Origin: an uncultured Nitrospiraceae bacterium
GTDB lineage: Bacteria > Hydrogenedentota > Hydrogenedentia > Hydrogenedentales > SLHB01
DNA length: 64,000 bases
NCBI GenBank assembly: GCA_964493915.1
Contig: CAZBQH010000425.1
Coordinates: 121-64,120, forward strand
Reading direction: 5' to 3'
A program made the translations under genes and the position numbers. The notes beneath the pieces are model-generated. The model was given only the letters and a program-made list of their open reading frames with translations. It did not search any database and was not told the DNA's origin. Positions 3,011 through 33,290 of the stretch are shown here, piece by piece (position 1 is the stretch's first letter; each line of letters begins with the position of its first letter).

Positions 3011-3071
3011 TTATGGGTTATGACCGCGGATGAGTTTTCAGGAACGACAGTGCGCGAATCCAGCAAATCGG

Positions 3072-12840: not shown

Positions 12841-12860
12841 AAAGCCTCCTTTTCTTGTTT

Positions 12861-15026
12861 TTACGCGATATTGCGGCGTTCAGAAACGCAGTTTGCCACG
12901 TAGGACCCAATGACCTGAGCCGCTTCGGCCGCGTTCACGAGGTCGTTGGGCTCGATCACCATCACCGAATCCACGGCGGCCCGTATTTCCTCGGATACCT
13001 TGTCCTCCAGTGCAACCAGTGTAATGTGGAGTCGCTGATTGAATTGGGTTCGCGCAGAATCCAAGACCTCCCGCACTTCCTCGATGGGCGAGCTCTTGGA
13101 AGCGGGGAAGGACTTGTTCCATGAGCAGTCGCTGATAAGAATCAGATACGTTTGTGAACCTCGCGCCAAGGCCTTTGCCTCATCCAGAAGATATGTCAGA
13201 GACAGTGCGTCTGACTGGCGGCCCTGCCCCGAATCCGGCAGGGCGGCGACGGCCCGGACCGCCTCGCTGTGCGAAAACGCCGCTGTTTTTCTGGGGTGAT
13301 ACATCCACTGCACCAGCGGCGCCCCTCCCCGGTTGCCGACCGGGCCGCTGCTGTAAAGTGCCGCAATGATCTCGATCTGCCTGTTTTTGACGCTTTCCAG
13401 CCATGCCGCCACCAGCAGCTTGCACATGCGCATCTGGGAGTCTGTCAATGACGACGAGCCATCCGCGGCGATAAGTAGGAGTGCTTTGCCCGCGGGATCA
13501 CGTTGGGTGGACACGCGGGTCTGGCGGTAGACAGAATCGCTGAATTCCGCTATCGGGAGGCGCCGGGGGTCCATCTGTCCCGATGTGCGCGGGAACTCCA
13601 GTATGAACTCGTCCACCAGGCTCGGGTACAGATTCCGGCGCAGTACGTCGGCGATGGGGAAGGCGTCGTTCCGCAGCATCTGCACTTCGGCCTCGTTCTC
13701 ACTCAGAGCGACGGGCCGGTCAAAGAGTTCGCCCCCGACCTCCTTGCCCCCAAGCTCGCGGGTGATGTTCATCCCCGTTGTCGGCTGCCCCTCGAGAGGG
13801 CCCTTCGCGAAGGGTTTTCGTTCGATGTCTTGGCCAACCAGGTCTTCACGCATATCCTCCCATTGGGCATTCTGCCCGCTGGCCTTGTAGGCCGTTTGGG
13901 TCATGTCTTCGAATGCCTTCTCGGTATCTTTGTCCCGATTGGCCTCTTCGTCGAGGCCCGCCCCAAGATTGGCCACGTCTTCTGGCGTCTGCGAACCGGA
14001 CTGCCTCGAATTCAGCAGATTCTTGAGCACATCCCCGTGAGACGCAGGTTGCGTCAGCGCGGGGGCCCTCGGTTGTCCTAAAGGGGGAATGCAGTCTGAA
14101 TTACATTCCACTTCCTCGTGCTGGGGACCGTATTCGTATCTTTGATGCCCCCGACTGTTGAAGGCGGGCTGACCGGGCCCCTTCTTGGCGGAAGGTTGAG
14201 GCGGCTTGGGGGGCGGTTCGGCGGGCAAAAGAGGCAGTAGAGCGGCCATGATCTTTTTGCCCCAGGATGCATAGGAAGCAAGGGCGGTTTCCCCGTCCGA
14301 CACACCCTCCAATTCGGCATAATCCCTCGAAATGTCGGATAACCAGCGTAGTATTTGCGCCGTCATGGGGTGAAGGCGCATCTCGCTCTGCTCGGGGAGC
14401 ACATCCCCGAACAGCACGGCATGCCGAATCACATCATGGAGGTTCCGGAAGCGCAATGACGACTGTGATACCTGGAAGAGCCGGTAAATCTCCACGCACC
14501 GGAGTTCGGGCGACCTTGTCAGATCCGCCAGAATGGCGCGGTGGGCCAGCGCCAGCGCGACATCATGGCACACCTGCTTATATGCGGGCAGCAGTTTGCC
14601 GTGCCTGTTGGCCTCATCAAGGTCAATAACAGGCGCGATAATCGCTTTGTATATCTCATAAATGAGGCATTCCGTTTCCATGTATATCGTGTGTCCGAGC
14701 GCGGCGCGAGCCGGCCAGGGAAACGAGGTGTAGAAGGCGCTCAACTGGGGCTGCGCACCCTCACCCTTCTCCGGAAAGGCAAACCCGAGGTCGTTCTTGC
14801 GCAGGACGCTCCGCAGGTTCTGGATGGCCTGGTAGAACTTGATCTGCCCCTGTCTCTTGAATGTCCAGGGCGTGTCCTCGCTGAAGGCGCGGTCGATGGA
14901 CGCTCCCGCCCAGGTCTCCTTCGGAAGCACACGGGCGCCATATCTCCCGTGCCCGTAGGTGGAGCACCCGGCGGCCCCGTATCCCCCATACGAGCCATAC
15001 ATCAGGTAATCGTCCTGCATCATCAT
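12861..15026 (-). CDS. A 721-aa protein with a C-terminal von Willebrand factor A (vWA) domain and an uncharacterised N-terminal region of about 450 aa.
   Basis: The MIDAS motif reads LLLIAADGSSSLT. The sequence ILISDCSW is also present. The start codon overlaps the MoxR-like gene stop (ATGA). Confidence 0.65.
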   Translation of the reverse strand: MMMQDDYLMYGSYGGYGAAGCSTYGHGRYGARVLPKETWAGASIDRAFSEDTPWTFKRQGQIKFYQAIQNLRSVLRKNDLGFAFPEKGEGAQPQLSAFYTSFPWPARAALGHTIYMETECLIYEIYKAIIAPVIDLDEANRHGKLLPAYKQVCHDVALALAHRAILADLTRSPELRCVEIYRLFQVSQSSLRFRNLHDVIRHAVLFGDVLPEQSEMRLHPMTAQILRWLSDISRDYAELEGVSDGETALASYASWGKKIMAALLPLLPAEPPPKPPQPSAKKGPGQPAFNSRGHQRYEYGPQHEEVECNSDCIPPLGQPRAPALTQPASHGDVLKNLLNSRQSGSQTPEDVANLGAGLDEEANRDKDTEKAFEDMTQTAYKASGQNAQWEDMREDLVGQDIERKPFAKGPLEGQPTTGMNITRELGGKEVGGELFDRPVALSENEAEVQMLRNDAFPIADVLRRNLYPSLVDEFILEFPRTSGQMDPRRLPIAEFSDSVYRQTRVSTQRDPAGKALLLIAADGSSSLTDSQMRMCKLLVAAWLESVKNRQIEIIAALYSSGPVGNRGGAPLVQWMYHPRKTAAFSHSEAVRAVAALPDSGQGRQSDALSLTYLLDEAKALARGSQTYLILISDCSWNKSFPASKSSPIEEVREVLDSARTQFNQRLHITLVALEDKVSEEIRAAVDSVMVIEPNDLVNAAEAAQVIGSYVANCVSERRNIA

Positions 15027-16099
15027 ACCAAGTCTCCACCCGCAGCGACGGAGTTGGCCGTCTCACGCCGAAATCCGAACACCTCGCAGAAAAGGGCTTG
15101 CGCCGCCTCACGGTCCTCCAGGTTCGCCGACCCGAGAAGTGTCAGGTTTGCGACATCCGGCAGCGGGTAATGCGGGTCGCGGGCGGCCTCCCGGATGAAC
15201 GCGCAATACCCATAGATTGTCGGCGGAGCTAGGCTCAACAGGTTCCCCTGCGCACGTTGCGTGCGCAGCATCCCTCCAAGCTCCACGATATTGAGTACCA
15301 GGCCCTCATCGGTCGCGGGGAGATACTTGGTCTTCATCAGATAACGCAGAATCTCGACTTCTTGTTCTGGGGAGGGGAAGTCAAACGCGATGCTGACCGT
15401 CCAGCGGCGTTTCAGTGCGTCGTCTTGGGTGACGAGGATATGCGTGGACGTTGCATCGGTATGGTAGTTGGAATCGGCGAACCAAGCGACCCCGGCCCCG
15501 CTCACCATGGCGTTGTCAGATATCCGGGTGAATCCCTGCGTCATGAGGTTGAGCAGGCCGCCCTGGATGGCGGCCGTGGACACGCGGCCAATCTCGCGGA
15601 GCCAGATGACGGGATAAACATCATCCAGCACCTTCTTCGACTCCAGGATGGCATTGACGATACAGCTTGGCTCGTCATACGTCTGCCCGTCCCGGATGGC
15701 GCGGCGGTAGTACATCTCCGAGATCGTGTCAAAGACAACCATTTCGACGGGAAACACGCGCAGCGGCTTGTACTTGATGCCCCTCAGCGCGCACAACGCT
15801 TTCCAATTCTCCGGGACATAGGCAAGCGCCTCGAAGAAGCCCGTCTTCGCAGTGCCGGTGTGCCCGTGAATGTGAATCATTTCCGCGTCGGCTATTGCCC
15901 CGGCTATGGATTCCGGGATCCGCTTCGGCAGAACGATGGGCGGGCGGCCCCTGTCTGGCACAAGCGCCACCAGTTCCGAAGGGCCGGCCTTGGCCAGTTG
16001 TTTAGTGTCACGGATATCGTAGATGCTGGGGGCCGTGGAAGCCCGGTTCGCGTCCTGCGCCGCATACGCTTCCGTCTTTGACCGCCGTGCAAATCGCAT
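15023..16099 (-). CDS. MoxR-type AAA+ ATPase of the AAA_5 or CbbQ/NorQ-like type.
   Basis: The Walker A reads IHIHGHTGTAKTGFFEALA. It is about 360 aa, and it is translationally coupled to the downstream vWA gene. Confidence 0.6.
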   Translation of the reverse strand: MRFARRSKTEAYAAQDANRASTAPSIYDIRDTKQLAKAGPSELVALVPDRGRPPIVLPKRIPESIAGAIADAEMIHIHGHTGTAKTGFFEALAYVPENWKALCALRGIKYKPLRVFPVEMVVFDTISEMYYRRAIRDGQTYDEPSCIVNAILESKKVLDDVYPVIWLREIGRVSTAAIQGGLLNLMTQGFTRISDNAMVSGAGVAWFADSNYHTDATSTHILVTQDDALKRRWTVSIAFDFPSPEQEVEILRYLMKTKYLPATDEGLVLNIVELGGMLRTQRAQGNLLSLAPPTIYGYCAFIREAARDPHYPLPDVANLTLLGSANLEDREAAQALFCEVFGFRRETANSVAAGGDLV

Positions 16100-16144
16100 G
16101 GGATTCTCCCTTCTATTCCGCCCGGGTGACGGACGGTGTTGCCA

Positions 16145-18376
16145 TTAGCTTTCCGCGGCGCTCACACTCACGCGCAACCTTCCGTCGAATGCGAGTTCAA
16201 TCCAAGGGACGCCGTCTTTCCTGCTGAATGCCGGGCCGTGCCATGCCTCGACAGCAATCGCGGTTTCGGTGCGGGCCAGCCGGACAAGCCCCCGAGCGCC
16301 GTGGCTCATGGCGCTTGATTCCCACCCCGCCAGCAGGGCATCGGCGGCACCGTTCGCCACCGTGATCCGTGCAGAAGGGCTGCCCAAACGATCCAGCGCG
16401 GTGCGCGCGCTGTCCTCGATTGCCCGATGCACGATGCGCACGCGGGATTCCAGAGAGAGAGGTTCGAATAATACTGGCTCGCCCACGCGGCTTAGAAACG
16501 CACCTGAAACCATTTCTTTGACCGCGCGCTGTACGTCTTTGCTCACATCGGCGTGTACCGGCGCAGGCCCGAAGCCGGTCCGGCGGTATGCCTTCTCATC
16601 TTTGCCGCCGGGCAGGTTCAGCGTGAAGAGAATCGCCAGATTCGAGCATGAGAACATACTGCCTACGGCAGACTGAGCCTCCCCGGTTTCCAATATCTGC
16701 AGGAAGAGGTCGCCCAAAGCGCTCCGCACCGACGGGACTGCATGGTCCAAATCCGCCACTTCGACCACGGCCCCGCGGTGGTGTTTCGCCACCTGTTCGA
16801 GACGCCCCGCCTGGTAACTGCCAACAATTCCGCGGCCGCTTCCCAGAAGTTGCGAAGCCGCCGTATGCGGATCTGGCATGCTCGCAGCATCAATAACCAC
16901 ATACGGAACATCAAGCCACTTCGCCAACAGCGAAAGGGTTTCCGACTTGCCTGTGCCAGGGGTTCCCTGGAGGGCGCCGGTAAACGGTTGGCCCAAGGGC
17001 CGGGTCAGCGTCTCGCGTTTCAGGAGCGCACCGAACTCGTCCAGGGCCCGCTCCTGTCCGAGTACCCGTTCGCGCAGGTAGACTCCCAGTTGAGGGTCGC
17101 AGGCTCCCTGCAGGAAGTGTGCCTGAACCTCGGCGGATCGGTCCTGACTACGCTGTGTCCCGAGCCCCGCGAATGTTTCATGGCATAGACCCAGGCGGGA
17201 TGCGAAGAGGTCTACATCGGGCAAACACCCCCTGCTGCTTTTGGCAACTGCATGTTTGATCAGATGTGGAAGTAGTCGCTTCGCGGTGTTGCCCGGGTGG
17301 CCGGTCAGCGCGTTAAGGATGTCTTCATTTGCTTTGGCCTGAGTCTTGGGGGAGAGCATCGCACCTTCAGCCGCCTCGCGCATCCCGAAAGAGGCAAGCG
17401 CTTCGACCGGTATATCCGGCACCCGCCGGAGAACGGGCATCAAGGGGTCGTTCTTCGCTCCCTGGCCGCCATGGAACAATGTCTGCAGTTCGCTGAACGT
17501 GCCTTCAAACAGGCACGGAGTGCCGGCGCTGTTCAACACCGCAAGAAGACTGGTGGTGGCATTCCCCATTTCGTAAGGGCTCACGGTCAGCCCGAGCGCG
17601 CGCGCCGGCATCACCAGCCGCCCCTCGGTGTTCTGTGCCAATTGCACCAGTTTCTGCGCATCGAGTGAGGGGAGCAGGACTTGCCCAAGAACGATATCCT
17701 TCTGAAGGCAGGCCCCGGCCACCAAGACGATGGCAAGCCGGCGCTCGATATCACATTCGCAGGTAATGCCGATGCACAGCCCCGATTCGAACAAGTCAGC
17801 CGTTTCCGCAGCCCAGTTAGACACTCCGACGGGCACCCCGTCGTCACCGCCGGCCCAGGGCATCACCGGCTTCACGATCCCCTGCATGCCCTTGAATACC
17901 TTGCGCAAGGCGGCCTCGTCGGTCGAGGCTGACCTGGCAGGGCATACGAGAGCCGCCACCTGCCGGATCAAGTCCAATTCGCGGCGCCATTCGGCCAGTT
18001 CCAGAAGACTTGGTATCCCATCCCGCACCAACCGCCTGAGACCCAGCGCGGGCGGAGTTTGCCCTGCCGCCTCTTCCCATCCGAGCATCCAGTGGGCCGA
18101 GAGCTCCGTCACGGATTCCAGTGCCTCGGCAGGTAGTCCTCCAGACCGCAAAGTGAGCGCGCACTCGACGTACACCTCCCCACCCTCGTCGCGTCCTACG
18201 ATAACCTTGATTCCCTCGCGTCCCGCAAACTGAATTTGGCCAGGCTCCACCTCCTTAGTTTCACCCAGGTCAGGCCATGCCTCCCCAACAATACCGGCCA
18301 TGCGTCTCACCAACTGGGCCGGGCTCTGCTTCGTGAATACCTGCCCATTTCCCATGGTCGTGTCGGACGCGCTCAT
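16145..18376 (-). CDS. A 743-aa protein with a C-terminal ClpA/ClpB-type AAA+ (AAA_2, D2-like) domain and a novel N-terminal region of about 430 aa.
   Basis: The stretch GQERALDEFGALLKRE...LQGTPGTGKSETLSLLAKWL...VVIDAASMPDPHTASQLLGSGRGIVGSYQAGRLEQ parallels the Clp D2 sensor and Walker region. Confidence 0.6.
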   Translation of the reverse strand: MSASDTTMGNGQVFTKQSPAQLVRRMAGIVGEAWPDLGETKEVEPGQIQFAGREGIKVIVGRDEGGEVYVECALTLRSGGLPAEALESVTELSAHWMLGWEEAAGQTPPALGLRRLVRDGIPSLLELAEWRRELDLIRQVAALVCPARSASTDEAALRKVFKGMQGIVKPVMPWAGGDDGVPVGVSNWAAETADLFESGLCIGITCECDIERRLAIVLVAGACLQKDIVLGQVLLPSLDAQKLVQLAQNTEGRLVMPARALGLTVSPYEMGNATTSLLAVLNSAGTPCLFEGTFSELQTLFHGGQGAKNDPLMPVLRRVPDIPVEALASFGMREAAEGAMLSPKTQAKANEDILNALTGHPGNTAKRLLPHLIKHAVAKSSRGCLPDVDLFASRLGLCHETFAGLGTQRSQDRSAEVQAHFLQGACDPQLGVYLRERVLGQERALDEFGALLKRETLTRPLGQPFTGALQGTPGTGKSETLSLLAKWLDVPYVVIDAASMPDPHTAASQLLGSGRGIVGSYQAGRLEQVAKHHRGAVVEVADLDHAVPSVRSALGDLFLQILETGEAQSAVGSMFSCSNLAILFTLNLPGGKDEKAYRRTGFGPAPVHADVSKDVQRAVKEMVSGAFLSRVGEPVLFEPLSLESRVRIVHRAIEDSARTALDRLGSPSARITVANGAADALLAGWESSAMSHGARGLVRLARTETAIAVEAWHGPAFSRKDGVPWIELAFDGRLRVSVSAAES

Positions 18377-20459: not shown

Positions 20460-21803
20460 CTAACCTTCCGTCAATTGCATCACATGAAGGACACCCCATC
20501 TCTCTTTCACATAGAGACATCCATCCCACGCCGCACCAAAATCGCCGGGCTGGAAAAAGCCGCCTCCCGTGGGGAAGTGGGCAATGCAATGCTGGTGTTC
20601 TTCTACGGCTACATCGCCATCCCTACATGGCTTTACCGAGATATTCCATGTTCTTGAGTGGGGATTGACGAGCTTCCTTGATTCAGTATCCCAAGTGCCA
20701 AATCGTATGGACGATGCGGTACGCCAGAATTCTTTCTGACGGTCTGAATCTATCAAAGGCGCCTCATTGCTGTTAAGAGCCCAAACACGGACATAGCCCT
20801 CCCAACAGCCCGTGGCTATCCGTCCATTGGGAAGGGCAACCAATACATCCACAATATCAGGATGCCTGAAGATGTGTTCGAGTTGCCCGGATGTGGCGTT
20901 CCAAACATAGACGCAATTACTCCAAGCAGCAACCACCCGTCCCCCCATCAAGATAAGCGCCCTTACGTCTCCGTCTTCTTCGTGAAGCGTCATCTGTTGG
21001 GCTGTAGCCCGGCTCTGCATGATGAGACGCATTTTGCTCACCCCTTTGTCCGTCTTACCACAGCATTCAGCAAAAACACGGCCGCCATTTGGCAGAGTAA
21101 GGGGGTCTACAGACGGATCTGCAAAGGAGCAGTTCGGCTTCGCCTTGTCTCGGAGATGCTCCGGGAGTTCCACGACACTTGTTACGTCTTCAGGCGTCCC
21201 AAAGCGCTCGATATGCCATCGAAGCACGCGGCCATCTTTTGCGGCCGAGATGAAGCATTTGGCAGATTCCGACAAAAGAAATGTTACGGCATCATTGTGA
21301 CCCTTCACCGATGCAAGCGACAGCAATGAAGTTGCATCCCACAGGCGAACAGTGCCATCGCCTCCAGCCGAAATTAGGTAATTCTCAATCACCAAAAGCC
21401 CGGTAGCATCGGCCCCATGTCCAGGCTGCAAAACAGTGCTGCGTGGCGCACCCAGTCTACAAGTATATGGATAAAGTGAACGTACCCAAATGAAGCCGGG
21501 CATTATATATCCCTTGGCTTCCCGCCATTGCCCAAGAATCGCTGAAAGCTTTATGCATTCCTGCTCCCATGGTGGAGTGCTCTTATCGCCATCGCTCACC
21601 TTGTAATACTCTGCCGCCTCCGGACAGTCATACCACCAGCAGGAATTCCACATGCACTGGAAGAGCGTAGTCGGATGGCGGTCGATGAAGTAGATGTCGC
21701 GGCGGATGGCTTCTGCGAGCAGGCCCAGCATGCGGTGCTTCGGATGCTCAACGGGCATCGCCGCCACGGCGTCATGGAAGTCTTGTGCGAGGGAGAAGAT
21801 CAT
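20460..21803 (-). CDS. WD40 repeat protein of about 447 aa. Its N-terminal domain of about 90 aa is homologous to that of the 864-aa WD40 protein.
   Basis: GDGTVRLWD-type WD repeats are present. The GGAGGGAG RBS favours the ATG at 21803 (MIFSLAQDF...), and this start aligns to MILALLQDL of the upstream gene. Confidence 0.6.
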   Translation of the reverse strand: MIFSLAQDFHDAVAAMPVEHPKHRMLGLLAEAIRRDIYFIDRHPTTLFQCMWNSCWWYDCPEAAEYYKVSDGDKSTPPWEQECIKLSAILGQWREAKGYIMPGFIWVRSLYPYTCRLGAPRSTVLQPGHGADATGLLVIENYLISAGGDGTVRLWDATSLLSLASVKGHNDAVTFLLSESAKCFISAAKDGRVLRWHIERFGTPEDVTSVVELPEHLRDKAKPNCSFADPSVDPLTLPNGGRVFAECCGKTDKGVSKMRLIMQSRATAQQMTLHEEDGDVRALILMGGRVVAAWSNCVYVWNATSGQLEHIFRHPDIVDVLVALPNGRIATGCWEGYVRVWALNSNEAPLIDSDRQKEFWRTASSIRFGTWDTESRKLVNPHSRTWNISVKPCRDGDVAVEEHQHCIAHFPTGGGFFQPGDFGAAWDGCLYVKERWGVLHVMQLTEG

Positions 21804-21837
21804 GCAGCACGCTCCCTCCGAAATTTGCATACGTAAT

Positions 21838-24432
21838 TCATTTGTGGTCTTCTACGAGATGACGATCGAGCCACAGATTATTGACGTCAGGGCTTTCCAA
21901 CAGACCACAGAGATTCAACACAAAACGCCTGGCGTGAGCATCATCGCCCTCAGCACGAATCACAAGCTTCGTGCCTTGACCCGCAGCAAGGACGAGCACA
22001 GCCATCATGTCGGTGGCATCGGTTGCGTCAGATGCAGCAACGTCAGGTCTCCGGAGGGTCACAGCGTGCCCGAACCTTATGGTTTCACGCCCCACGACAT
22101 TCGCGAGAATGGCATCGAGTCCTGTCTCGACACCGACGGTTACGGTCGCAGTGGTTTCGCCGTTGCCTTGCTTTAGAGGGCATGAGAGTCCTGCGGTCAC
22201 CCATGTCAATCGTCTTTGCGCACCATGTGCTACGCGTTGGTCTCTATCTTCGACAAAGCATTTCAGCAAAGACGGATCGTGAATGGCACCTATCGCGATT
22301 GAGCGCAGATGCAAACAATCTTCATCCCCGATCAACCCTATGAGCTTGGCATAGATCTCACGGCGTTGATCTTCGTCGAGCGTAGACGCTTCTGCCGTAG
22401 TAGTTAGTGACTTCAGACGATCCGCTGCCGCGACGCGTATATGAATAGGCGTGCCTGCGGATTCGATCAGTTCGAACAGATGGTTAATGTCATCGCTGTG
22501 CAGAACACCGTCCCTTTCTCTCAAACGGGAAAGGACCTCTTCTTCTTGCAGGCGAAGTTGCGCTGGAGGGATACGATGTCCTCCATCAATGTTGTCCACG
22601 GCGAAGAACGCCACGCCGCCGCCCAAACAACCAACGGCAAGAACGCCACCATTCTCGGATAACTTGCAGCAACTTGGCGTGTGTTCAAGAACGTGCGAGG
22701 CGAGCGGCAGTGCCGCTTGGCAATCCCAGAGCATCACGGCTTTGTCTATCCCTACAGACATTGCATATTGGCCATCAGCGGATATCGAACAATTAGTTAC
22801 GGGGCCAGTATGTCCAACAACTGTTCTAACCGAAGGAGCGACGCTGGCGAAATCGACAAATGCAATCTTGCCTTGCGAATCCCCAATAATGCCTTGATGC
22901 GCGTTCATGCTTAATGCACAAGGGAGCGACGTACAAATATTCAACTCTAGACCAAAATGCCCCGTATACGCGTTATCTACACACAGCCACCGCATACTGT
23001 CCATTTGTTGCTGCCAAACGATTTCGCCCCAATGATTCTCGGCCCGCAAATCGAAGAGCATAGCCACTCCTTTGTAGCAATCTACTGCCAGCAAAGCACT
23101 GTGCGCAGAAAAGGCCGCAATATCGATACCCCAGGGAAGAGAATGATCAACTATCTGATAAATTTCTTGTGCTTCCTGAAAATCATTGCGACCGAATTGC
23201 TCTAAATATGAGGATATATCGACAATCCAACAATCAAATTTACGCCCCCAATACTTCCCTAATACATAACCTGTATATTTCGAAGCACAGAGAGGTATTA
23301 ACCACGTCTGAAAGTCCTTTTCAAGAACTCGAGGATTTTCGGATATTGGATGCCATGCTATGTCTTTGGTTCTGCCAGTTGAAATATCGAGCATTTGAAC
23401 GAATTTCTTGCATTGCACAAGTGCTTGATTTTGTGATGGGAGGTATTCCAAAAATGGCCCAATTTCTGAGTACCTTCCTAAAGCCGATTTGTGTACCAAG
23501 CACGCTTCGTCCAGATTCCAGACAATGCATTCACTATTCAAATCTAAGGAAATGCATCTTCTTCCCTCGTAGTCCAAGTCAATAGATCTGACTCTAGTCG
23601 AATGACCTTCGATAGATGGCGCATTGCTTTTTACGAGCTTTGCTGCATCCCAGACTGCAATCTCTCCAGACTTGGATGCTGTAGCAAAGCGCGTTCCGGG
23701 GCCTAATTGGATTAAGGACGTTATTGATAAATCGTGGGGTCGCCATCCGCAGTAGAAGGGTTTCACTATTTCAATAGAGCGACCTCTTATATCAATCTCG
23801 ATGTGAAAATCGTTGCCGATGCTTAAAGCATCGATGCCTGATGTGCCCTTCTTGCCCTCAAAGTATATTTGTTTGTTGTTAAGTGTAACACAGAAGGTCT
23901 CGGGTAATAGCAAGATAGAGCCAAACCAAGTCAATTCTTTATCATCCCTAGTTTGCGTTTGCCTTATCGTCTCTTGTCTTGTGTCCGGAACGACAAAGTC
24001 ACAATGCAGAATCTTGCCAGACGTAAGTTTCCATAGTAAGGTCTTCTTCTCTGCTGTTACGGCCAAAAGAATGTCTTCTTCTGGAGCATATGCCAAAGCT
24101 ACGTCCTGGCCACTAGACTCAATGTGAAAGACCCAATCCGGTGTTTGGTTAGCTCCAGAGGAAAGGGGAACATGTATACAGCGCAACCAGGGTTTTCCCT
24201 GATCTGATTCCCATGCAGTGAGTAACTGGTGCAACTGATCGCTAGCATCTGCTCCATGACGCGACACCAAATCGGCATAAAGAATTCCAAAAAAACACCA
24301 TGGATATTCTATTATTCGGGGTGCAACCCGTCGAACTGCTCGGGTAATCTCCCTAATGGCTACGTAACTCGTATTAGCAGATGGCATCGCATCCAAGGCA
24401 TTATTTAAGTCCTGCAAGAGTGCTAAGATCAT
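21838..24432 (-). CDS. An 864-aa WD40 or beta-propeller protein with a shared N-terminal domain, HEAT-like helices and a C-terminal HPr-like domain in which the active-site His is replaced by Asp.
   Basis: WD-like repeats are present. The C-terminal stretch TVGVETGLDAILANVV...VAASDATDATDMMAVLVLAAGQGTKLVIRAEGDDAHA...LCGLLE aligns to HPr (GLHTRPAAQFV...[29 protein letters not shown]). The start overlaps the NACHT gene stop (ATGA). GC is lower than in neighbouring genes. Confidence 0.55.
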   Translation of the reverse strand: MILALLQDLNNALDAMPSANTSYVAIREITRAVRRVAPRIIEYPWCFFGILYADLVSRHGADASDQLHQLLTAWESDQGKPWLRCIHVPLSSGANQTPDWVFHIESSGQDVALAYAPEEDILLAVTAEKKTLLWKLTSGKILHCDFVVPDTRQETIRQTQTRDDKELTWFGSILLLPETFCVTLNNKQIYFEGKKGTSGIDALSIGNDFHIEIDIRGRSIEIVKPFYCGWRPHDLSITSLIQLGPGTRFATASKSGEIAVWDAAKLVKSNAPSIEGHSTRVRSIDLDYEGRRCISLDLNSECIVWNLDEACLVHKSALGRYSEIGPFLEYLPSQNQALVQCKKFVQMLDISTGRTKDIAWHPISENPRVLEKDFQTWLIPLCASKYTGYVLGKYWGRKFDCWIVDISSYLEQFGRNDFQEAQEIYQIVDHSLPWGIDIAAFSAHSALLAVDCYKGVAMLFDLRAENHWGEIVWQQQMDSMRWLCVDNAYTGHFGLELNICTSLPCALSMNAHQGIIGDSQGKIAFVDFASVAPSVRTVVGHTGPVTNCSISADGQYAMSVGIDKAVMLWDCQAALPLASHVLEHTPSCCKLSENGGVLAVGCLGGGVAFFAVDNIDGGHRIPPAQLRLQEEEVLSRLRERDGVLHSDDINHLFELIESAGTPIHIRVAAADRLKSLTTTAEASTLDEDQRREIYAKLIGLIGDEDCLHLRSIAIGAIHDPSLLKCFVEDRDQRVAHGAQRRLTWVTAGLSCPLKQGNGETTATVTVGVETGLDAILANVVGRETIRFGHAVTLRRPDVAASDATDATDMMAVLVLAAGQGTKLVIRAEGDDAHARRFVLNLCGLLESPDVNNLWLDRHLVEDHK

Positions 24433-27035
24433 TGCCTGTTTACCTCATGTACGGAAAACAATCCGGAGAAGTTGCCCTCCGAGGAGTTCGGGTCAGCCTC
24501 GGCTTTGGCTTCGAGAAACTGCCAGTCGGTGAGGAGATCAGCGACAACGTCCCAGTACTTGGACTTCGGGTCGAAATTGCCGCCCAGCTTGGCGGCTTCC
24601 AGGCGATGGTACGGCAGCTCGACGACTTTGCGAATGTTGGCTGGGCGTGGTGTCTGGGGCAAGCGTTTGGCGCGGGCGCGCTGGGCTTCGAGGGATTCAG
24701 CCCAGTAGTCGAGCGTGTGAAAGTAATCGCCAAGGCGGTCGTGGGCCGCAAGTTTGGCCGCTTTCTCTCTTAGATAGCGTGTTGTGACGGCTTTCCCGAC
24801 CTGGCGGTGATAGAAGTTCATGACGACGGTGCCGTCCGCGCGCCGCTCCGTCATGTAGGGTTTCATGTCGGCGTAGAGCCGCGACCAGACGACGATAGGC
24901 AGCCGGTCGATTTCTTGTGGTGATTCGGGGTTGCGTGCGAAGTAGTCGTTCATGACGGCCTTCTCGCGAGAGAGAACATCCAAGATCTCATCCTCAGTGA
25001 GTCCGTTCTTGGCGGCGGCGACATTGCTGAGGGCTCGTTCGACAAGCAGCCTTCCGTGCTGCCGGGGTAGTTCAAGCCGCTGCAGCATGTCGGCAAGTAT
25101 GCCTTCGATTCCTTTATGCAAACCCGATACTCCATCGGCAGTGCAAGGCAGTCCGTCCCATGATCGCCAGAGGCGGGCTTCCTCGAACGCGATCTTGAGA
25201 TAAAGTGGGCGGCCATCCTCGTTGAACTTGGTTAGTACATCATTCTCTTGAGCCTTTTGTAAGGTCCTGTTGACTTCGTCAAGCCAGCTCTTAAGCAATT
25301 CTTTGCCGTCCTCAGGGGCGAGACACCCGATTCTTGCAAGCGACTTTGGCCAGATTTGCCGAGCGATGCTGAAAGGATCATTCACTGCGGTCTTCGACAC
25401 CTCAGTCTTTGGTTGCTCTTTTCCAAGCATCGAAAGGATCGGCTTGACACCCGACCAGATTTTCTGATCGATTCTGAAAGGGCCATTTACGGCGGTTTTC
25501 GACTCCTCTGTCTTTAATTGCTCCTCTTCAAGCACCGAGAGGATCAGCTTGACACCCGATGCAAGCTGCCGCGGCAGCCAGTCGAGCATTTGGGCGTTGT
25601 CGGTGGGACTAAGTTGGTCAAGGGCATCGAGAAAGACCACTGTGGGGCCCGGTTTTGCGCCTTCCTCACCCTGCACAGGGCCTGAAAGGCGTTCGCGAAA
25701 GGCTTCGATCAGTTCATTCATGTCTATGGGAGGAGAATCAATACCCAACTGTCGGCACAGGCTTCGCAGGAGGTTGCCCAGATCAGCCGATTGCGGAGTC
25801 GCCCCAATAAAGCGCGCAACCGCCTGATCTGGGGCAGTGAGCGTCAGCCATGCCCGGGCCATCAGTGCTGTCTTGCCCGTGCCGGAAACGCCGTGGATGA
25901 CGAGGGGGAGTTGGTCGGCCCCATTGGCGAGGTACTTCTTGATTCTGTTGAGTTGCTTGCGCCTGCCGATAAAGTGCCGGCTTCGCTCAGTAGCGAACTC
26001 GCGATGCGCATCAACCTCTCGCTCCAGTTCGGGATGTTGCTGAAAAGCCCGCAATTCCATGTCAATGATGTCCTGCAAATCCCTCAAAACCTCGTCGCAA
26101 AGTTGCGACAGATCCGGCTCATTGTGGAGATCCATCGCCCGTGAGCGTGACCGGTCCCGCGTCTCAACCCGATTCCAGTCCGCGGCATATTTGAAAATGT
26201 GTTCAGGCGGCAACCTTAAGCCTATCTGCTCTTTCAATGCCTGCAAATCGTCCTTATCCTTCCCCGTATCGATGAAGGTGCTGGCCGGCCCGTTTTCTGG
26301 TGCGCCCGTAATCTCCCGGAAATAGGCAAAGACGTGTTTCTCCGCCTCGCTCGCCTGGAATGCGCCATGTTCGATTTCCTGATGCGTGGCCGACTGCTCA
26401 TAGTCTGTGCGGCGCGGATCATCCATGGACCAGCCCAGGGCATTGATAGCATCGCGCAAGAAGCCACCCATTGCCGACTCAATGTCCTGCCAATCTTGTG
26501 CTTCGGCTTCTTTCATGCGCTGCATGTCTTCGGCGGACACGTTTTCGGGGAAAAAGATGGTGCGCGGCTGCAGGACGTACTCCTCGGGCACCGCATTCCG
26601 GTCTTTGCGGTACCAGCCTATCCGCTGTTCGATGATGTTTTCGCACCACGCCACTGGTGTATCTTCTCCTGCCAACAGCGCCCGCCCAGCCTCCGGCACA
26701 ATATCGAGAAGCGACTCGAACTCGTTCGCCGGAATCCGTGCCGGCAGCGGCCGCCATCCATAGCGTTCGCCCAGTAGAATGATGAAGTTCGGACGCGGCG
26801 ACATTTCCTGGCATCGCGCCAGTTCCTGGAAACAGATATTCATTGTCTGCTGGTCCAGAGCCGCCTCGGTGCTCACGCCCCAGCGCAGGTCAATTGCCTG
26901 AAAGCGAGCCCCATGCTCCTGGCAGTACTTCCGCAGCGCTGGAAACACATGTTGCTGAAGCGCGTTCCGCTCGGCTTTCAAGTCGCTGAACGTCGAGCTC
27001 ACAAACACCCTGAAAATCAGGTCTCGCCTTGCCAT
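24429..27035 (-). CDS. An 868-aa STAND (NACHT-type) NTPase with an N-terminal DUF4062-like domain. It is upstream of, and coupled to, the WD40 genes.
   Basis: The N-terminal motifs are VFVSSTFSDLKAERNAL...IDLRWGV...IILLGERYGW. The Walker A reads LVIHGVSGTGKTALMARAW. A winged-helix-like tail is present. Confidence 0.7.
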   Translation of the reverse strand: MARRDLIFRVFVSSTFSDLKAERNALQQHVFPALRKYCQEHGARFQAIDLRWGVSTEAALDQQTMNICFQELARCQEMSPRPNFIILLGERYGWRPLPARIPANEFESLLDIVPEAGRALLAGEDTPVAWCENIIEQRIGWYRKDRNAVPEEYVLQPRTIFFPENVSAEDMQRMKEAEAQDWQDIESAMGGFLRDAINALGWSMDDPRRTDYEQSATHQEIEHGAFQASEAEKHVFAYFREITGAPENGPASTFIDTGKDKDDLQALKEQIGLRLPPEHIFKYAADWNRVETRDRSRSRAMDLHNEPDLSQLCDEVLRDLQDIIDMELRAFQQHPELEREVDAHREFATERSRHFIGRRKQLNRIKKYLANGADQLPLVIHGVSGTGKTALMARAWLTLTAPDQAVARFIGATPQSADLGNLLRSLCRQLGIDSPPIDMNELIEAFRERLSGPVQGEEGAKPGPTVVFLDALDQLSPTDNAQMLDWLPRQLASGVKLILSVLEEEQLKTEESKTAVNGPFRIDQKIWSGVKPILSMLGKEQPKTEVSKTAVNDPFSIARQIWPKSLARIGCLAPEDGKELLKSWLDEVNRTLQKAQENDVLTKFNEDGRPLYLKIAFEEARLWRSWDGLPCTADGVSGLHKGIEGILADMLQRLELPRQHGRLLVERALSNVAAAKNGLTEDEILDVLSREKAVMNDYFARNPESPQEIDRLPIVVWSRLYADMKPYMTERRADGTVVMNFYHRQVGKAVTTRYLREKAAKLAAHDRLGDYFHTLDYWAESLEAQRARAKRLPQTPRPANIRKVVELPYHRLEAAKLGGNFDPKSKYWDVVADLLTDWQFLEAKAEADPNSSEGNFSGLFSVHEVNRQ
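25351..25559. repeat. A tandem duplication (2 x about 104 bp) inside the NACHT CDS. It encodes a 35-aa repeat (LSVLEEEQLKTEESKTAVNGPFRIDQKIW and LSMLGKEQPKTEVSKTAVNDPFSIARQIW).
   Basis: Adjacent copies of about 80% identity are visible in the DNA and in the protein. Confidence 0.6.
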
Positions 27036-27367: not shown

Positions 27368-28480
27368 TTATCCGGGGCGTAGGAGCGCCGCGTAGAATTC
27401 CGCTTGTAACTGGCGGGAGAAGTATTTGGCAGTGTGGCGTTGGCGTAGCGCTGGCTTCAATCCGCGTTCGAGCCAGACATGAAAGACATTGTAGGCCAGG
27501 AACACCAAGAGCAGAATCGCGGTGATAGCGTTGGTGTTGAGGTGGTAGACGTGGTCGGCATGCCAATCGTGGACCAATTCGTTGAACCCTTCGTTTTCGA
27601 TGCCCCAACGTCCGTGTCCGATGCGCACGATGGTGTGGGTGAGGGCCTTGGCTTTGGAGAGGCTGGTTGCCCAGAGCCATTCACTACGCTGTTCCTCGCC
27701 GTCTTTGGTCAGTTGGCGGCGGACAGTGCACGTTTCTTGGGAGCGAACAACACGGACTGGCGCGTCCATCTGCGTCCATGAAGTGAAGCCTTCGATGTCG
27801 TGGCAACGGCATTGTTTGCCGTGGTATTCAAATTGCATCGGCGGGCCGTCTTCGAATTCCATCAATGCCCGGAAGTCCTGGATAAGCGCCCGGTTCTCGT
27901 TCTTGAGCACGGCGATGAAGTCTTTGTTGCTGCCAAGGATCAACCGGCACAGGCGGGGGTCGAGATAGAGGGCGTCTCCGGCCACGACGTTGAAGGCCCG
28001 CGGGCTGTTTTCGAGCAGGCGCAGGAAGAGGCGCTCGGCGGTGGCGATCTCGCCTTCGCCGGGACGCGGCATTTCCAGATCCAGCAGGACATGCCCCGTG
28101 GGGCCCATCAGGTAGGCCGCCACGTAACGGAGATAGTACTGGGTGCGGACCTCGTCTTTACACTCCACTTGGCGGGAAAGGACTCCCTCACAGCATTGAC
28201 GGTAGCTTGTCCACATTTCATGCCCGTCGAAGATAAGGACACGCAGGCCTCCGGGAAAGGACGGCAGGGTTTTCTTGCGCTTGCGCCGCCGATGGTAAGC
28301 GGAAAGCGCCGCACGAAGCTCGTTCAGGTTCAATAGCGCCGCCACTTCGCCCAAGCGGTCCGCGCTGGGCAACTCACCGCCCATCCACTTTTGCCATCGT
28401 GTGCCCAAAGTCCCCTTGCCGCCCAAAGCATCCTCTATGGCGTTGAGGCTTCCTATGCGTGCCGTCACCGCGAGGAACAA
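27368..28480 (-). CDS. DDE transposase (IS4/IS701/ISAs1-like superfamily).
   Basis: The C-terminal stretch GHGRWGIENEGFNELVHDWHADHVYH is typical of DDE_Tnp_1-like transposases. It is about 370 aa. Confidence 0.55.
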   Translation of the reverse strand: MFLAVTARIGSLNAIEDALGGKGTLGTRWQKWMGGELPSADRLGEVAALLNLNELRAALSAYHRRRKRKKTLPSFPGGLRVLIFDGHEMWTSYRQCCEGVLSRQVECKDEVRTQYYLRYVAAYLMGPTGHVLLDLEMPRPGEGEIATAERLFLRLLENSPRAFNVVAGDALYLDPRLCRLILGSNKDFIAVLKNENRALIQDFRALMEFEDGPPMQFEYHGKQCRCHDIEGFTSWTQMDAPVRVVRSQETCTVRRQLTKDGEEQRSEWLWATSLSKAKALTHTIVRIGHGRWGIENEGFNELVHDWHADHVYHLNTNAITAILLLVFLAYNVFHVWLERGLKPALRQRHTAKYFSRQLQAEFYAALLRPG

Positions 28481-29469: not shown

Positions 29470-30739
29470 ACGCGAGTATATAGGAACCTATATAATCGCG
29501 TCAACGCAAACCATACGAGGAGACGGCCATGAGTAAAGAGAAACCATCCCCGCGAGAAGCCAAGACCCTGATCGCGTGTTTCGAGAAAGTGCCCGAGCCG
29601 CGCGTGGAGCGAACCCGGCGGCACAAGCTGGTCGACATCCTTGTTATCGGACTGTGTTCGCAGCTGACCAATGGACAGGGCTTCAACGACATGGTCGTGT
29701 TCGCAAAGGCCAAGAAGGAGTGGTTGGAAACCTTCCTGGAACTGCCTCACGGCATTCCTTGCCGCGATACCTTCAACCGGGTCTTTTCCGCCATCGACCC
29801 GCACGCCTTTCTGGAGTGTTTCGTGCAATGGGTCCAAGGCATCTGTCCGAATCTAGGCGACGAGGTGGTCGCCATCGACGGAAAGGCCCTGCGCCGCGCC
29901 CTAAACGAGGGAGAAAAAATCCCGTATATTGTCAGCGCGTGGGCATCGGAAAACGGCTTGGTCTTGGGGCAGGTCAAGGTGGACGACAAGTCCAATGAGA
30001 TTACGGCCATCCCCGAACTCCTGCGCGTGCTGCAACTCAAGGGATGCATCGTGACCCTGGATGCGATGGGGTGCCAGAAAGAGATCGCCGCCGACATCGT
30101 CGGCCAGCATGCCGACTACGTCCTGGCCCTCAAGGGCAATCATGCCAACGTCCACGATGAAGTCCGGGAGTTCTTCGACGACGCGGTCCCACCGTGTGTA
30201 ACCCAATGCGCCGACACCGCGGACCAAGCCAAGATGGAGTTCTTCCAAACCATCGAAAAAAGCCATGGGCGCATCGAGACCCGGCGCTATTGGCAATCCA
30301 CCGACCTGGCTTGGTTCCAAGACCAACCCCTCTGGAAGAACCTGCGTAGTCTCGGCATGGTCGAGTCCATTCGTAACATCAAGGGAAAGAATACCATTGA
30401 ACGCCGCTACTTCCTCTCCAGCCTGCCCCTGGAAGCCCAAGGACTCGCCAGGGCCATCCGCGGCCACTGGGGCGTCGAAAACTCGCTACACTGGAGTCTC
30501 GACGTGACCTTCCGCGAAGACGACAGCCGCGCAAGAACACGATACGCCGCCCAGAACCTTGCAATCCTCAGAAGAATTGCCCTCAACCTCGTCAAGAAAG
30601 ACAACTCGAAAAAATGCTCGCTCAGACAGAAGAAGATCTACGCCGCACTCGATTCGGCATTCCTTCAACATCTACTGGGATTTTAGATGCGTTTGCCCTG
30701 TCCTCTACCCATGAGCTCGGGAAACAATGTCGTTGCAAT
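29470..30739. mobile_element. An ISAs1-family insertion sequence with approximate bounds. It is inserted into and truncates a DUF4062-NTPase gene.
   Basis: The transposase gene has short flanks. The truncated target fragment starts at 30740. Confidence 0.5.
29529..30686 (+). CDS. ISAs1-family transposase (H-repeat-associated type).
   Basis: GHWGVENSLHWSLDVTFREDDSRAR is the hallmark ISAs1 motif. It is 385 aa. Confidence 0.8.
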   Translation: MSKEKPSPREAKTLIACFEKVPEPRVERTRRHKLVDILVIGLCSQLTNGQGFNDMVVFAKAKKEWLETFLELPHGIPCRDTFNRVFSAIDPHAFLECFVQWVQGICPNLGDEVVAIDGKALRRALNEGEKIPYIVSAWASENGLVLGQVKVDDKSNEITAIPELLRVLQLKGCIVTLDAMGCQKEIAADIVGQHADYVLALKGNHANVHDEVREFFDDAVPPCVTQCADTADQAKMEFFQTIEKSHGRIETRRYWQSTDLAWFQDQPLWKNLRSLGMVESIRNIKGKNTIERRYFLSSLPLEAQGLARAIRGHWGVENSLHWSLDVTFREDDSRARTRYAAQNLAILRRIALNLVKKDNSKKCSLRQKKIYAALDSAFLQHLLGF

Positions 30740-30992
30740 CGCCCAGGATGCCCAGGAAAAAGGGGCGGCACACGTCGATCTGTTCGAGGCAGAGGTCGAG
30801 GACGCGGTCGTTCTCGGCTTCCTCGGGCGTGATGCCCCAGTGGAGGTCCATATCAATCAGGTGGATGCGATAGGGCAGCAGGCACTCGCGCAGCCGCAGA
30901 AAGACCCGCTTCATCAAGATGTCCCTCTCTGCGTCCATATCGCGGAAGGTGGACGAAATAAACACCCGTACATCACGCCATCGAGGCGACAT
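30705..30992 (-). pseudogene. A 5' fragment of a DUF4062-NTPase paralog (copy B). It is truncated after ...CRPFFLGILG next to the ISAs1 element.
   Basis: It is about 90% identical to the fragment at 11267-11512 and has the same breakpoint. Confidence 0.65.
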
Positions 30993-31173: not shown

Positions 31174-32046
31174 TCACTTTTCGTTGACTGGATCCCAGCG
31201 GCCTTTCGCAAAGCGCCAAGTCATCGCAAAGGAGGGCTCATCTTGATGCGCCGCAAGCAACGGTGGCCCAAGGAAATTGCGTACTTTACCGAGTACGACA
31301 GCGAAATCATCGCTCGCCGAATCCTCGATAGCGCTTCGTTTGAGGAAGCCTTTCCAGAGCCGTTTGCGGTCCTCGTCCTCGGCAAAGGAGTTCTCAAGGG
31401 AAAGGGGCAATTCTGACGGAACGGGTGTTCTGCGCCGGTGAAAGGTGGCGTGGATTGCTCGGCATAGGGTCTGGCCGTCATAGTCGAAACCGTTGGCGAG
31501 GGTCCAGATGTCGTGCAGCTTCTCCGCGAGGACCGTCTCGCGCGAGTATGCCCGGATACGGGGCGTGGGCAGCGCGTCAAGCAACGGCGTATAGTCGAGC
31601 AACTGGGCTTCGGGAGTCACTACGTCCCCGAAGCCCACGTCGATTTGCATCGGGATGCGCGCTTGCGCCAAGTGTGCCGTGAGCTTTATGCGTTGGCCAC
31701 CGTACTCCTGGTCCAGCCGGATTTCCTCGACGGTCATGGCAGTCTCATCGAAGGACAGACCGTCAGGCTCGACCTGGGTTCTGCATATGGTCTCGAAGGC
31801 CCGGCGCAGTGCTTCGGGTGATGCATCGCCGCAGCCGAGGAGGTCCAGGTCGCGCGTGGGGCGATGGGGCTTGTCGGTCCAAAGAGCGAAAAGGCGGGCG
31901 CCTTTGAGTACAAAACGGTCGGCGTACTCAGAGCAAGTGAGCCGGTATAGCAGGCGTTCGGTCGCAAATGCCGTCAGGATGAGATTGAAGTCGCGCTTCT
32001 CGCGCTGGGCCAGATTGTATAGGCGGTCGCGGACAGACGCCGCCAT
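31174..32046 (-). CDS. abiEii: AbiEii-type nucleotidyltransferase toxin (DUF1814 family).
   Basis: It lies downstream of an AbiEi-like gene and is about 290 aa. The start MAASVRDRLYNLAQ is assigned, because the long upstream in-frame extension overlaps abiEi out of frame. Confidence 0.55.
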   Translation of the reverse strand: MAASVRDRLYNLAQREKRDFNLILTAFATERLLYRLTCSEYADRFVLKGARLFALWTDKPHRPTRDLDLLGCGDASPEALRRAFETICRTQVEPDGLSFDETAMTVEEIRLDQEYGGQRIKLTAHLAQARIPMQIDVGFGDVVTPEAQLLDYTPLLDALPTPRIRAYSRETVLAEKLHDIWTLANGFDYDGQTLCRAIHATFHRRRTPVPSELPLSLENSFAEDEDRKRLWKGFLKRSAIEDSASDDFAVVLGKVRNFLGPPLLAAHQDEPSFAMTWRFAKGRWDPVNEK

Positions 32047-32063
32047 GTCCTTTGGCTTCTTCT

Positions 32064-32681
32064 TCAAAGGAAGAGCTCCAGGTAGGGGCGCATGATGCGG
32101 GCAACGCGGCAGATATGGGCAAAATGGTCGAGTTCTTGAACGGTGGCCTTGCGTTGCTTGATGGCGTCTCGAAGCGCTTCCACGGCCACGTCGCGGCCTA
32201 TCTTGTTGCGGTATTTGAAGCAATCGGCAACAGTCTTGGAGGGATTCGTCATGTGAACCGTGACGCCCTCGAGGATGTGGTCTGCGACACCCTGCGTCAG
32301 CGCCTGACCGGAGAAGCGAACAACCCGTAGGGGAATCTCCGGTATCTGTGGCGGCCGCGCCTTGGGATGAACGGCAACCCACGTCTCCGAAGGCAGCTGC
32401 GTGGTCAGCTCGTGGAATCGAAGAGCGGAAAGGAGACAAACGACGGCGTCCGGAGCGCGCTTACCTATGAGGGCAAGGCTGTGGTTTTCCGTTGGCGGGT
32501 TGTCCGGATGGACATAGAGCCCCCTTCCTACCCGGCGAAGCTGGCCGGTGCGAGAGAGAAGATAGGCGTAGCGCCTGGGAATGCCCTGCTTCTCCAGGTC
32601 GCGCGGGCGAAGAACGCCTTGCTCTTTCGCGAGAGCCAGTGTCTTTTCCACGTGGGATTGCTGCGGTCTCATTGCGTTCAA
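32064..32681 (-). CDS. abiEi: AbiEi-type antitoxin or transcriptional regulator.
   Basis: It is about 200 aa, has an N-terminal wHTH-like region and sits immediately upstream of the AbiEii-like gene with an 18-nt gap. Confidence 0.5.
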   Translation of the reverse strand: MNAMRPQQSHVEKTLALAKEQGVLRPRDLEKQGIPRRYAYLLSRTGQLRRVGRGLYVHPDNPPTENHSLALIGKRAPDAVVCLLSALRFHELTTQLPSETWVAVHPKARPPQIPEIPLRVVRFSGQALTQGVADHILEGVTVHMTNPSKTVADCFKYRNKIGRDVAVEALRDAIKQRKATVQELDHFAHICRVARIMRPYLELFL

Positions 32682-33176: not shown

Positions 33177-33265
33177 GAAAGGGCTTACGAGTACTCGTAA
33201 GCCCTTGATATCATTGGTGAACGGGGCGGGGCTCGAACCCGCGGCCACCGGATTAAAAGTCCGAT
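33177..33265. repeat. Right copy of the 90-bp direct repeat. It overlaps the 3' half of the intact tRNA-Lys and its terminator.
   Basis: It is identical to 2679-2768 except for one base. Confidence 0.85.
33181..33204 (-). terminator. Rho-independent terminator of tRNA-Lys (GGGCTTACGAGTACTCGTAAGCCC plus TTTCTTTTT).
   Basis: A perfect 10-bp stem is followed by a T-run on the minus strand. Confidence 0.6.
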
Positions 33266-33290
33266 GCTCTACCACCTGAGCTACCCGTCC
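33215..33290 (-). tRNA. tRNA-Lys (anticodon UUU) with an encoded CCA.
   Basis: The hand-folded sequence is GGACGGGTAGCTCAGGTGGTAGAGCATCGGACTTTTAATCCGGTGGCCGCGGGTTCGAGCCCCGCCCCGTTCACCA. The acceptor, D, anticodon (loop CTTTTAA) and T arms are all consistent. Confidence 0.85.

Follow-up and report, generated by a model that had tools for sequence, protein, structure and literature searches.

Positions 20460-27035 of a 64,000-nucleotide stretch of DNA from an uncultured bacterium of the Hydrogenedentota (contig CAZBQH010000425.1, positions 121 to 64,120; the whole stretch is called the window below) carry three adjacent genes, A, B and C, which lie on the minus strand in an operon. This operon probably encodes a split NLR-like (STAND) defence receptor with alternative, separately encoded WD40 sensor subunits. 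Protein A would provide the effector, a DUF4062/TIR-like NAD+ hydrolase (NADase) domain, and the switch, a NACHT NTPase with a winged helix, and B and C would be two alternative WD40 sensor subunits. The pattern of fusion and fission among relatives, the translational coupling and the co-conservation of the genes are strong genomic evidence for what would be a physical complex.

Layout of the operon and domains of gene A

The name ND is given here to the N-terminal domain of about 85-120 residues that is common to B and C. The open reading frames (ORFs) and their junctions were as follows.

24429-27035, minus strand: gene A, ORF with translation, 868 aa
24429-24432, minus strand: ATGA in which the A stop and B start codons overlap (translational coupling), from the sequence
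21838-24432, minus strand: gene B, ORF with translation, 864 aa; divergent ND, WD40 propeller region, helical (HEAT-like) region and HPr-like domain
20460-21803, minus strand: gene C, 447 aa from the ATG at 21803; canonical ND and WD40 propeller

An original prediction, made from the letters of the window, had described an 868-aa DUF4062-NACHT gene overlapping an 864-aa WD40 gene by ATGA, and both the ORFs and the overlap were confirmed. For the second WD40 protein it had given 447 aa and a spacing of 7 nt. The mechanical ORF of C spans 20460-21830 (456 aa); a length of 447 aa was retained because the conserved ND begins at the ATG at 21803, which has GGAGG 11 nt upstream. With this start the gap between B and C is 34 nt, and the 7-nt spacing is true only for the upstream ATG at 21830. 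All three ORFs were intact and encoded identically in 3-4 independent metagenome assemblies, and sequencing error is therefore not an issue. A scan of the operon for promoters and terminators gave sites no more numerous than expected by chance.

The GC content of the WD40 genes had been described as lower than that of their surroundings. The difference was strong for B (48.2%, with 0.46 at third codon positions, GC3; residues 1-480, 44.2%) and only mild for C (53.5%, GC3 0.56), compared with 59.2% for the window; gene A had 57.1% (GC3 0.67). A B-like gene on a second contig (L088) was likewise below its neighbours in GC. The low values of both genes fit sensors that are swapped horizontally more often than the NTPase/effector chassis.

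Gene A encodes, in this order, a DUF4062 (TIR-like) domain, a NACHT/STAND NTPase and an NWD1-type winged helix. The protein has no WD40 repeats on its own polypeptide; it ends about 110 residues past the winged helix with the conserved motif LTDWQFLEAKAEADP, and the repeats are located in B and C.

26751-27011, minus strand: DUF4062/TIR-like domain, presumed effector, residues 9-95; Pfam 45.1 bits (cut-off 24.7)
25521-25973, minus strand: P-loop NTPase core, residues 355-505; AAA_16, AAA_22, NPHP3_N and NACHT matches, motifs from the translation
25350-25559, minus strand: in-frame 105-bp tandem duplication in the NTPase domain; Tandem Repeats Finder, overlapping profile matches at positions 490-527 and alignment consensus
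24762-25115, minus strand: NWD1-like winged helix, residues 641-758; Pfam HTH_NWD1 34.8 bits (cut-off 27)

The Pfam match to DUF4062 spans profile positions 1-67 of 82, and the domain also matched PDB entry 11gz, the solved TIR-like domain of human TEP1 (phmmer, E = 3e-12). DUF4062 has been shown to be a TIR-like NADase (bioRxiv 10.64898/2026.05.01.722283), and NAD+ hydrolysis by DUF4062 in phage defence was shown in two 2026 preprints. The NTPase was best recognised by AAA_16 (residues 355-497, 47.1 bits; cut-off 32.6), and the Pfam NACHT model scored 21.7 bits, under its cut-off of 26.7. Walker A (GVSGTGKT) and Walker B (VVFLDALDQ) motifs, sought as GxxGxGK[ST] and hhhhD[DE], were present. 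The duplication consists of 2 copies of 35 residues, 81% identical in DNA, at a site that varies in length among homologues. More than 1,700 homologues of A were found. The nearest, of about 780-870 aa and without repeats, are 45-64% identical, and identity to fused DUF4062-NACHT-WD40 forms was 38-47%.

The shared N-terminal domain, the split junction and the sensor arrays

24181-24432, minus strand: divergent ND of B, residues 1-84; iterated profile and six-frame scan
21450-21803, minus strand: canonical ND of C, residues 1-118; seed profile match

A BLASTP comparison of B with C aligned the proteins from residue 1 in both, with 15/52 identities (E = 2e-4). A seed profile of canonical partners scored 231.9 bits for C and 8.8 bits for B. 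Once the profile had been iterated four times on ORFs from related loci, the ND of B scored 53.7 bits (E = 8e-15), so that the shared N-terminal domain claimed for the two WD40 proteins survived the profile searches. The N-terminus of P0128, a homologue of B, reads MIFELAQDIQDTVAKMPREHEKH; it is intermediate between B and the canonical domain and therefore bridges the two.

In the neighbourhoods of the closest homologues of A, the NTPase gene of about 810-850 aa ends in the motif LTDWQFLEAKAEA and overlaps a partner gene by 4 nt. Canonical partners start with MIF[DE]L..DF.D....MP..HP...L.LL.EAIRRD.HFI.RHPTTLFQC.WN.CWWYDCPEAA. Single-chain relatives of about 1,450-1,900 aa contain ND internally, directly after the FLEAKAE motif and the NACHT module. 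In fused P0094 this stretch reads LEAKAEGGMTFDLGMDFAG ... RHPDTLFQCLWNRVWWYDCPDAA, and in fused P0076 it reads GGGHLIFELADDL. In nine fused genome loci ND was located at about residues 764-1007. Because the same domain directly follows the FLEAKAE motif in these fused relatives, ND is the linker between NACHT module and propeller in fused NWD-type proteins. Both the pre-WD linker identity of the domain and the idea of a fissioned STAND sensor, proposed from the window alone, are thus confirmed by the fused proteins.

Relatives of A were surveyed in 80 species-level genomes, and both fused and split forms occurred among them. At 12 of the 80 loci the junction was identical to that of the window: A ends 1-2 residues past the end of the family profile, the genes overlap by 4 nt (-4) and the partner starts at ND residue 1. 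Loci with the -4 overlap include L005, L006, L007, L009, L011, L012, L014, L015, L054, L069 and L077. At about 17 further loci a stand-alone NTPase reaches about 40-150 residues (most 37-44) beyond the profile end, and the ND match of the partner begins about 10-25 profile positions in. Relative to the junction of the window, the split there lies roughly 20-40 residues farther along. These two junction classes point to what would be at least two independent fission points. At the remaining loci the NTPase is fused to WD40, TPR or HEAT repeats.

Tandem arrays of 2-6 ND-sensor genes were present at many loci. A Victivallales genome (L012) has four ND genes in a row, a metagenome-assembled genome (MAG) of the Planctomycetota (L077) has 5-6 and a Hydrogenedentota MAG (L015) has two large ones; in L006 and L007 ND partners flank the NTPase gene on both sides. 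A scan of metagenomes seeded on ND gave 79 loci, many of them on short contigs. ND was at the start of the ORF in 63/79, a split-to-fused ratio that is biased since one of the two search patterns begins with Met. Two to four tandem ND genes were found in 26/79, and at 22 of the 28 measurable junctions the spacing between the NACHT stop and the ND start was -4 nt. The identical ATG/-4 junction is kept across phyla.

Identity was 51-69% for the NTPase and 54-68% for ND, and the sensor/propeller regions were only locally alignable (24-37%). Other ND partners carry HEAT_2 or TPR repeats after the propeller, and some related loci adjoin TIR_2 and TCAD9/TPR-S genes. The conserved ATGA junction, the arrays of 2-6 genes, the conserved ND and the hypervariable sensors support, by comparative genomics, the earlier suggestion of one NTPase with alternative sensors. 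With these surveys the finding reaches from one locus to a widespread architecture in many uncultivated bacteria.

Short ORFs with ND alone or its first part lay inside arrays or at their ends, and many of them overlap the preceding gene by 4 nt. They included L007 12619-13023 (134 aa), L005 14342-14608, L137 10322-10480, L140 2339-2539 and L143 3865-4065 (52-91 aa), and an ORF of 36 aa in L089. They look like footprints of cassette turnover or replacement by recombination within ND.

Gene B and its HPr-like domain

Both B and C gave Pfam WD40 matches. The label WD40/HEAT, which had been attached to B, is correct for WD40; HEAT is supported only by the look of the sequence and by analogy with the HEAT_2 repeats of other partners, and no HEAT family of Pfam matched B at E <= 0.1. 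The C-terminus of B had been described as alignable to HPr of the phosphotransferase system (PTS), and this domain sits past the point where canonical partners end. It is thus a non-canonical domain, homologous to a host protein, on a sensor.

21898-22158, minus strand: HPr-like domain of B, about residues 759-845, followed by the tail motif NNLWLDRH; Pfam, hhalign, AlphaFold2 (AF2), Foldseek and alignments

The Pfam PTS-HPr model matched residues 761-834 of B with 36.4 bits (cut-off 23; E = 5.4e-9). All nine PDB sequence matches of the domain were HPr or Crh (phmmer), and hhalign against five textbook HPr/Crh sequences gave E = 7e-6 over 67 columns. A single-sequence AF2 model of the region was uninformative (predicted local distance difference test score, pLDDT, 36.7). 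With a 7-row alignment of relatives AF2 predicted the HPr order of strands and helices (beta-alpha-beta-beta-alpha-beta-alpha; pLDDT 86.9, predicted TM-score 0.81). The best 39 PDB matches of this model in Foldseek were all HPr, Crh or NPr, with top TM-scores per target of 0.81-0.88 and root-mean-square deviations of 1.5-1.9 Å. The HPr fold proposed for the C-terminus from the window alone therefore withstood structure prediction.

The active centre of HPr, GLHARP, is replaced by GLDAIL in B. His15 is changed to Asp, confirming the reported GLD for GLH, and Arg17 and Pro18 are changed to Ile and Leu. Ser46 is Asp in B in the phmmer, hhalign, MAFFT and BLASTP alignments alike. Since His15, Arg17 and Ser46 are all missing, the HPr-like domain of B, judged by its residues, cannot be a phosphocarrier.

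A word-indexed search with full-length B returned only B and generic WD40 proteins, and one with residues 620-864 returned nothing, not even B itself. When the same residues were compared exhaustively with 1.84 billion representatives, only six other proteins matched. Among them was P0128 (880 aa), a full-length homologue of B with 35% identity (E = 7e-163), which the indexed search had missed; a call of B as an orphan on that search alone would therefore be wrong. Its contig L088 has the same gene order as the window, with a NACHT C-terminus, the B-like gene and an overlapping canonical ND gene.

At position 15 the relatives carry Gly, Ala, Cys or Tyr (Gly or Ala in the closest), and none has an acidic residue. 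Asp15 is thus not a conserved phosphomimetic, and a selected phosphomimetic at the His15 position, which the original prediction had raised as a possibility, was rejected. All six relatives keep Ser46 in a DAKSIM-type motif, and Asp46 is therefore peculiar to B among these HPr-like proteins. The relatives all have a common tail motif, '..N(L).(L/F)D(R/K)F', beyond their last helix.

None of the NACHT/ND operons of the 80 genome loci and none of the 79 ND metagenome loci had an HPr-like domain; the sole other match in the genome loci was a separate gene on the opposite strand of L012. A metagenome scan with the alignment of the B family gave no confirmed match. The domain was thus ruled out as a defining part of the system; as a rare add-on it cannot define the function of the system. 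Its likeliest role in B is that of an additional module for protein binding or regulation.

Some HPr-like genes were observed in other surroundings. P0130 is a stand-alone His-less HPr-like protein of 110 aa encoded in L089 2-3216 (also in L090 and L091). Its gene is ATGA-coupled and follows a canonical ND-WD40 gene and a gene for a 329-aa membrane protein; a 36-aa ND remnant comes after it. P0131 (L092 183-3563, a low-GC contig) is a His-less HPr-like gene that adjoins genes for a regular 352-aa WD40 protein without ND and a P-loop protein. The L012 match lies in an operon (29-7599, minus strand; Victivallales MAG OY787460.1) divergent from the split NACHT locus with four ND genes. The products of this operon are a 944-aa protein with a RyR domain, a 732-aa RelA/SpoT-TPR-SLOG protein and a receiver-like protein; the last of these bears a His-less HPr-like domain that has the same tail motif as the subfamily of B. 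An IMG/VR viral contig (L175, 6001-6321, plus strand) encodes a 106-aa HPr with canonical His15-x-Arg-Pro and Ser46 in which this tail motif is absent; phage-borne HPr thus exists.

Genomic context, alternative readings and significance

The operon lies in a mobile, defence-rich stretch. Upstream of gene A there are insertion sequence (IS) genes, a complete AbiE pair and a tRNA gene, and other putative defence genes lie elsewhere in the window.

33215-33290, minus strand: tRNA-Lys, upstream of gene A
31174-32681, minus strand: AbiEi/AbiEii, complete pair, upstream of gene A
30705-30992, minus strand: short DUF4062 ORF (N-terminal part only), 95 aa, abutting the IS transposase next to AbiEii
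29529-30686, plus strand: DDE transposase gene (IS), upstream of gene A
27368-28480, minus strand: DDE transposase gene (IS), upstream of gene A
11728-18376, minus strand: four-gene block (370, 721, 358 and 743 aa), the first three without Pfam or PADLOC match
11267-11512, minus strand: short DUF4062 ORF (N-terminal part only), 81 aa, closely similar to the ORF at 30705-30992
8967-11216, minus strand: second DUF4062-AAA_16 STAND gene, 24% identity to A
8216-8950, minus strand: FtsZ/tubulin-like ORF, N-terminally truncated, after the second STAND gene
3072-6041, minus strand: 989-aa protein; PADLOC PDC-S07 (E = 8e-22) and PDC-S33 (E = 3e-14)

The second STAND gene stops just where an NPHP3-type TPR region begins and is followed by the truncated FtsZ/tubulin-like ORF; it may be another truncated or split STAND. 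The two short DUF4062 ORFs suggest IS-mediated disruption or duplication of a third DUF4062 gene. In the four-gene block the 743-aa gene has a ClpB-type AAA_2 domain and a weak PADLOC match (PDC-M37B), and the block may be an uncharacterised system.

In a split defence receptor of the kind favoured here, ND would dock non-covalently on the C-terminal helices of A and so rebuild the receptor, with the ATGA coupling favouring co-synthesis of A with its partner. Docking of separate sensors would therefore allow one NTPase/effector chassis to be armed with several interchangeable specificities. Binding of a trigger by the sensor, most likely a phage protein, would relieve autoinhibition. Protein A would then oligomerise via its NACHT module and cluster the TIR-like domains, and the resulting consumption of NAD+ would abort the infection, with activation along Apaf-1, Avs or TEP1 logic.

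Single-chain DUF4062-NACHT-WD40 proteins of bacteria and eukaryotes (NWD1/NWD2/TEP1-like) have the same TIR-like domain, NACHT module, NWD1-type winged helix, ND linker and propellers. In contrast to these, the chain is here cut within the linker, there is more than one sensor per NTPase and one sensor has an HPr-like domain. The logic proposed for A, with an N-terminal effector, a central STAND NTPase, a C-terminal repeat sensor and ligand-induced oligomerisation, resembles that of Apaf-1, Avs and bNACHT. Receptors of that type are single polypeptides and rarely occur in conserved operons (Kibby et al., preprint), and no PADLOC Avs or bNACHT model matched A. Swarozyc and Evangelion likewise use a DUF4062 TIR-like domain, and NAD+ depletion in phage defence has been shown for them; unlike the present operon they are single-gene systems, with DUF4062 and a helical stalk or auxiliary region, and have no NACHT module or WD40 partners.

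Further likenesses are analogies. In the NAIP-NLRC4 inflammasome and in plant sensor/helper NLR pairs several alternative sensors feed one executor, and these sensors are complete NLRs with their own NTPase, whereas the sensors described here have no NTPase and would, by prediction, supply in trans the missing part of the receptor. In type I restriction-modification systems that have alternative HsdS, one enzymatic core works with interchangeable tandem specificity subunits that share a docking part, and array ends hold truncated spare copies. The proteins and the chemistry are unrelated, and no invertase or shufflon was seen here. For the HPr-like domain the closest parallel is Crh, a Bacillus paralogue of HPr in which the fold is kept and Gln stands in place of the phospho-accepting His; Crh structures ranked among the top matches both by sequence and by fold. 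Ser46 and Arg17 are still present in Crh where B has Asp and Ile, and the B domain differs further in being fused to a WD40 sensor and in its extra conserved tail motif. With plant NLR-ID proteins B shares a non-canonical host-protein-like domain fused to the sensor.

Several points weigh against a split defence receptor. The alignment of A with TEP1 stops at A residue 103 and places no residue opposite the catalytic Glu of DUF4062 TIR-like NADases (E97 in KpSwz, E1008 in TEP1); E105 and E220 of A, family-invariant in the alignment, are candidates for it. In vitro, no NADase activity was measured for the purified human proteins NWD1, NWD2 and NPHP3, whose architecture is the same, while TEP1 was active. 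The 35-residue duplication inside the NTPase domain of A might impair the NTPase. PADLOC-DB 2.0 (2023) had no convincing model for A, B or C: the best scores were PDC-M16A for A (E = 0.017), none for B, and HEAT-ARM_XIII for C (E = 5e-6), across the WD stretch. A scan of viral contigs for ND found none. Finally, the analysis directly supports the gene structure, the domain identities, the homology of ND to the linker inside fused forms, the conserved split and sensor arrays and the HPr fold; we infer the A-B and A-C binding, the trigger, the NADase activity and the defence role.

A bolder version of the same idea adds decoys. The operon would encode a 'chassis + cartridges' NLR armed in trans by exchangeable ND sensors, some of them with integrated decoys; in B an HPr mimic that cannot be phosphorylated, Asp occupying the Ser46 site, would bait phage proteins aimed at HPr/carbon-catabolite signalling. 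We regard this as an outside chance.

About as doubtful, or slightly more so, is the proposal that B and C are negative regulators, i.e. antitoxin-like guards whose ND docking keeps the NADase of A inactive until their loss, degradation or titration activates it. The coupled translation and the strict co-occurrence would likewise be expected of a toxin and its inhibitor, and the short ND-only ORFs of L005, L007, L137, L140 and L143 could be minimal caps. However, most of these ORFs look like truncated remnants at array ends, the propellers of fused relatives hold the canonical STAND sensor position, and a conserved dock with hypervariable propellers suits the recognition of diverse targets more than it does a uniform inhibitor.

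It is improbable that the operon encodes a housekeeping STAND for metabolic signalling, in which the HPr-like domain would provide a link to the PTS or to carbon status and defence would play no part. The presence of an HPr-type domain in B speaks for such a role, as does the Ser46 'KSIM' motif, which is what HPr kinase recognises in canonical HPr and which most members of the HPr-like subfamily keep in the alignment. A sigma-54 activator gene adjoins the operon, and another is found near L005. In addition, the TEP1 and NPHP3 relatives were counted as non-immune STANDs in a 2026 Nature survey. On the other hand, the HPr-like add-on is rare, with none in the NACHT/ND operons of the 80 genome loci or in the 79 metagenome loci, B itself is without both phosphorylation sites, the operon lies in a mobile defence island, and arrays of paralogues with hypervariable sensors are hallmarks of conflict systems.

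That the split is a pseudogene artefact, with a frameshift in a once-fused gene and B as a decaying insertion, is hardly credible. In its favour, the break cuts through the middle of a domain that fused relatives have in one piece, and B has anomalous GC and a divergent ND. However, a frameshift origin was ruled out by the ATG start and -4 overlap conserved across phyla, C is preceded by a Shine-Dalgarno sequence of its own and begins at the same ND residue, the three ORFs are intact and identical in the independent assemblies, and P0128 is a full-length B homologue in the same gene order.

STAND/NLR receptors have been treated as single chains, with covalent links between sensor, switch and effector. 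A full-text literature search of incomplete coverage returned no split NACHT gene with ND-type sensor arrays and no HPr-like domain in a STAND system; in a 2026 STAND survey the words 'split proteins' are confined to a methods note on Avs7/Dsr1. Recruitment of a core-metabolism signalling fold to conflict systems is rare, and the HPr-like module would be one such case; a second type of operon, with RelA/SpoT-SLOG and RyR proteins, also has related copies that lack the His. If the version with decoys were true, it would be a prokaryotic counterpart of NAIP/NLRC4-type sensor multiplexing and of plant NLR-ID decoys.

If a split receptor is indeed encoded, the conserved split, the docking domain and the arrays would allow sensor specificity to be multiplexed and exchanged without touching the switch or the effector. 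The operon would then be a minimal testable system for the control of a NACHT switch by a sensor in trans, and would suggest a route to engineering receptor specificity. It would also bear on the eukaryotic NWD1/TEP1 clade.

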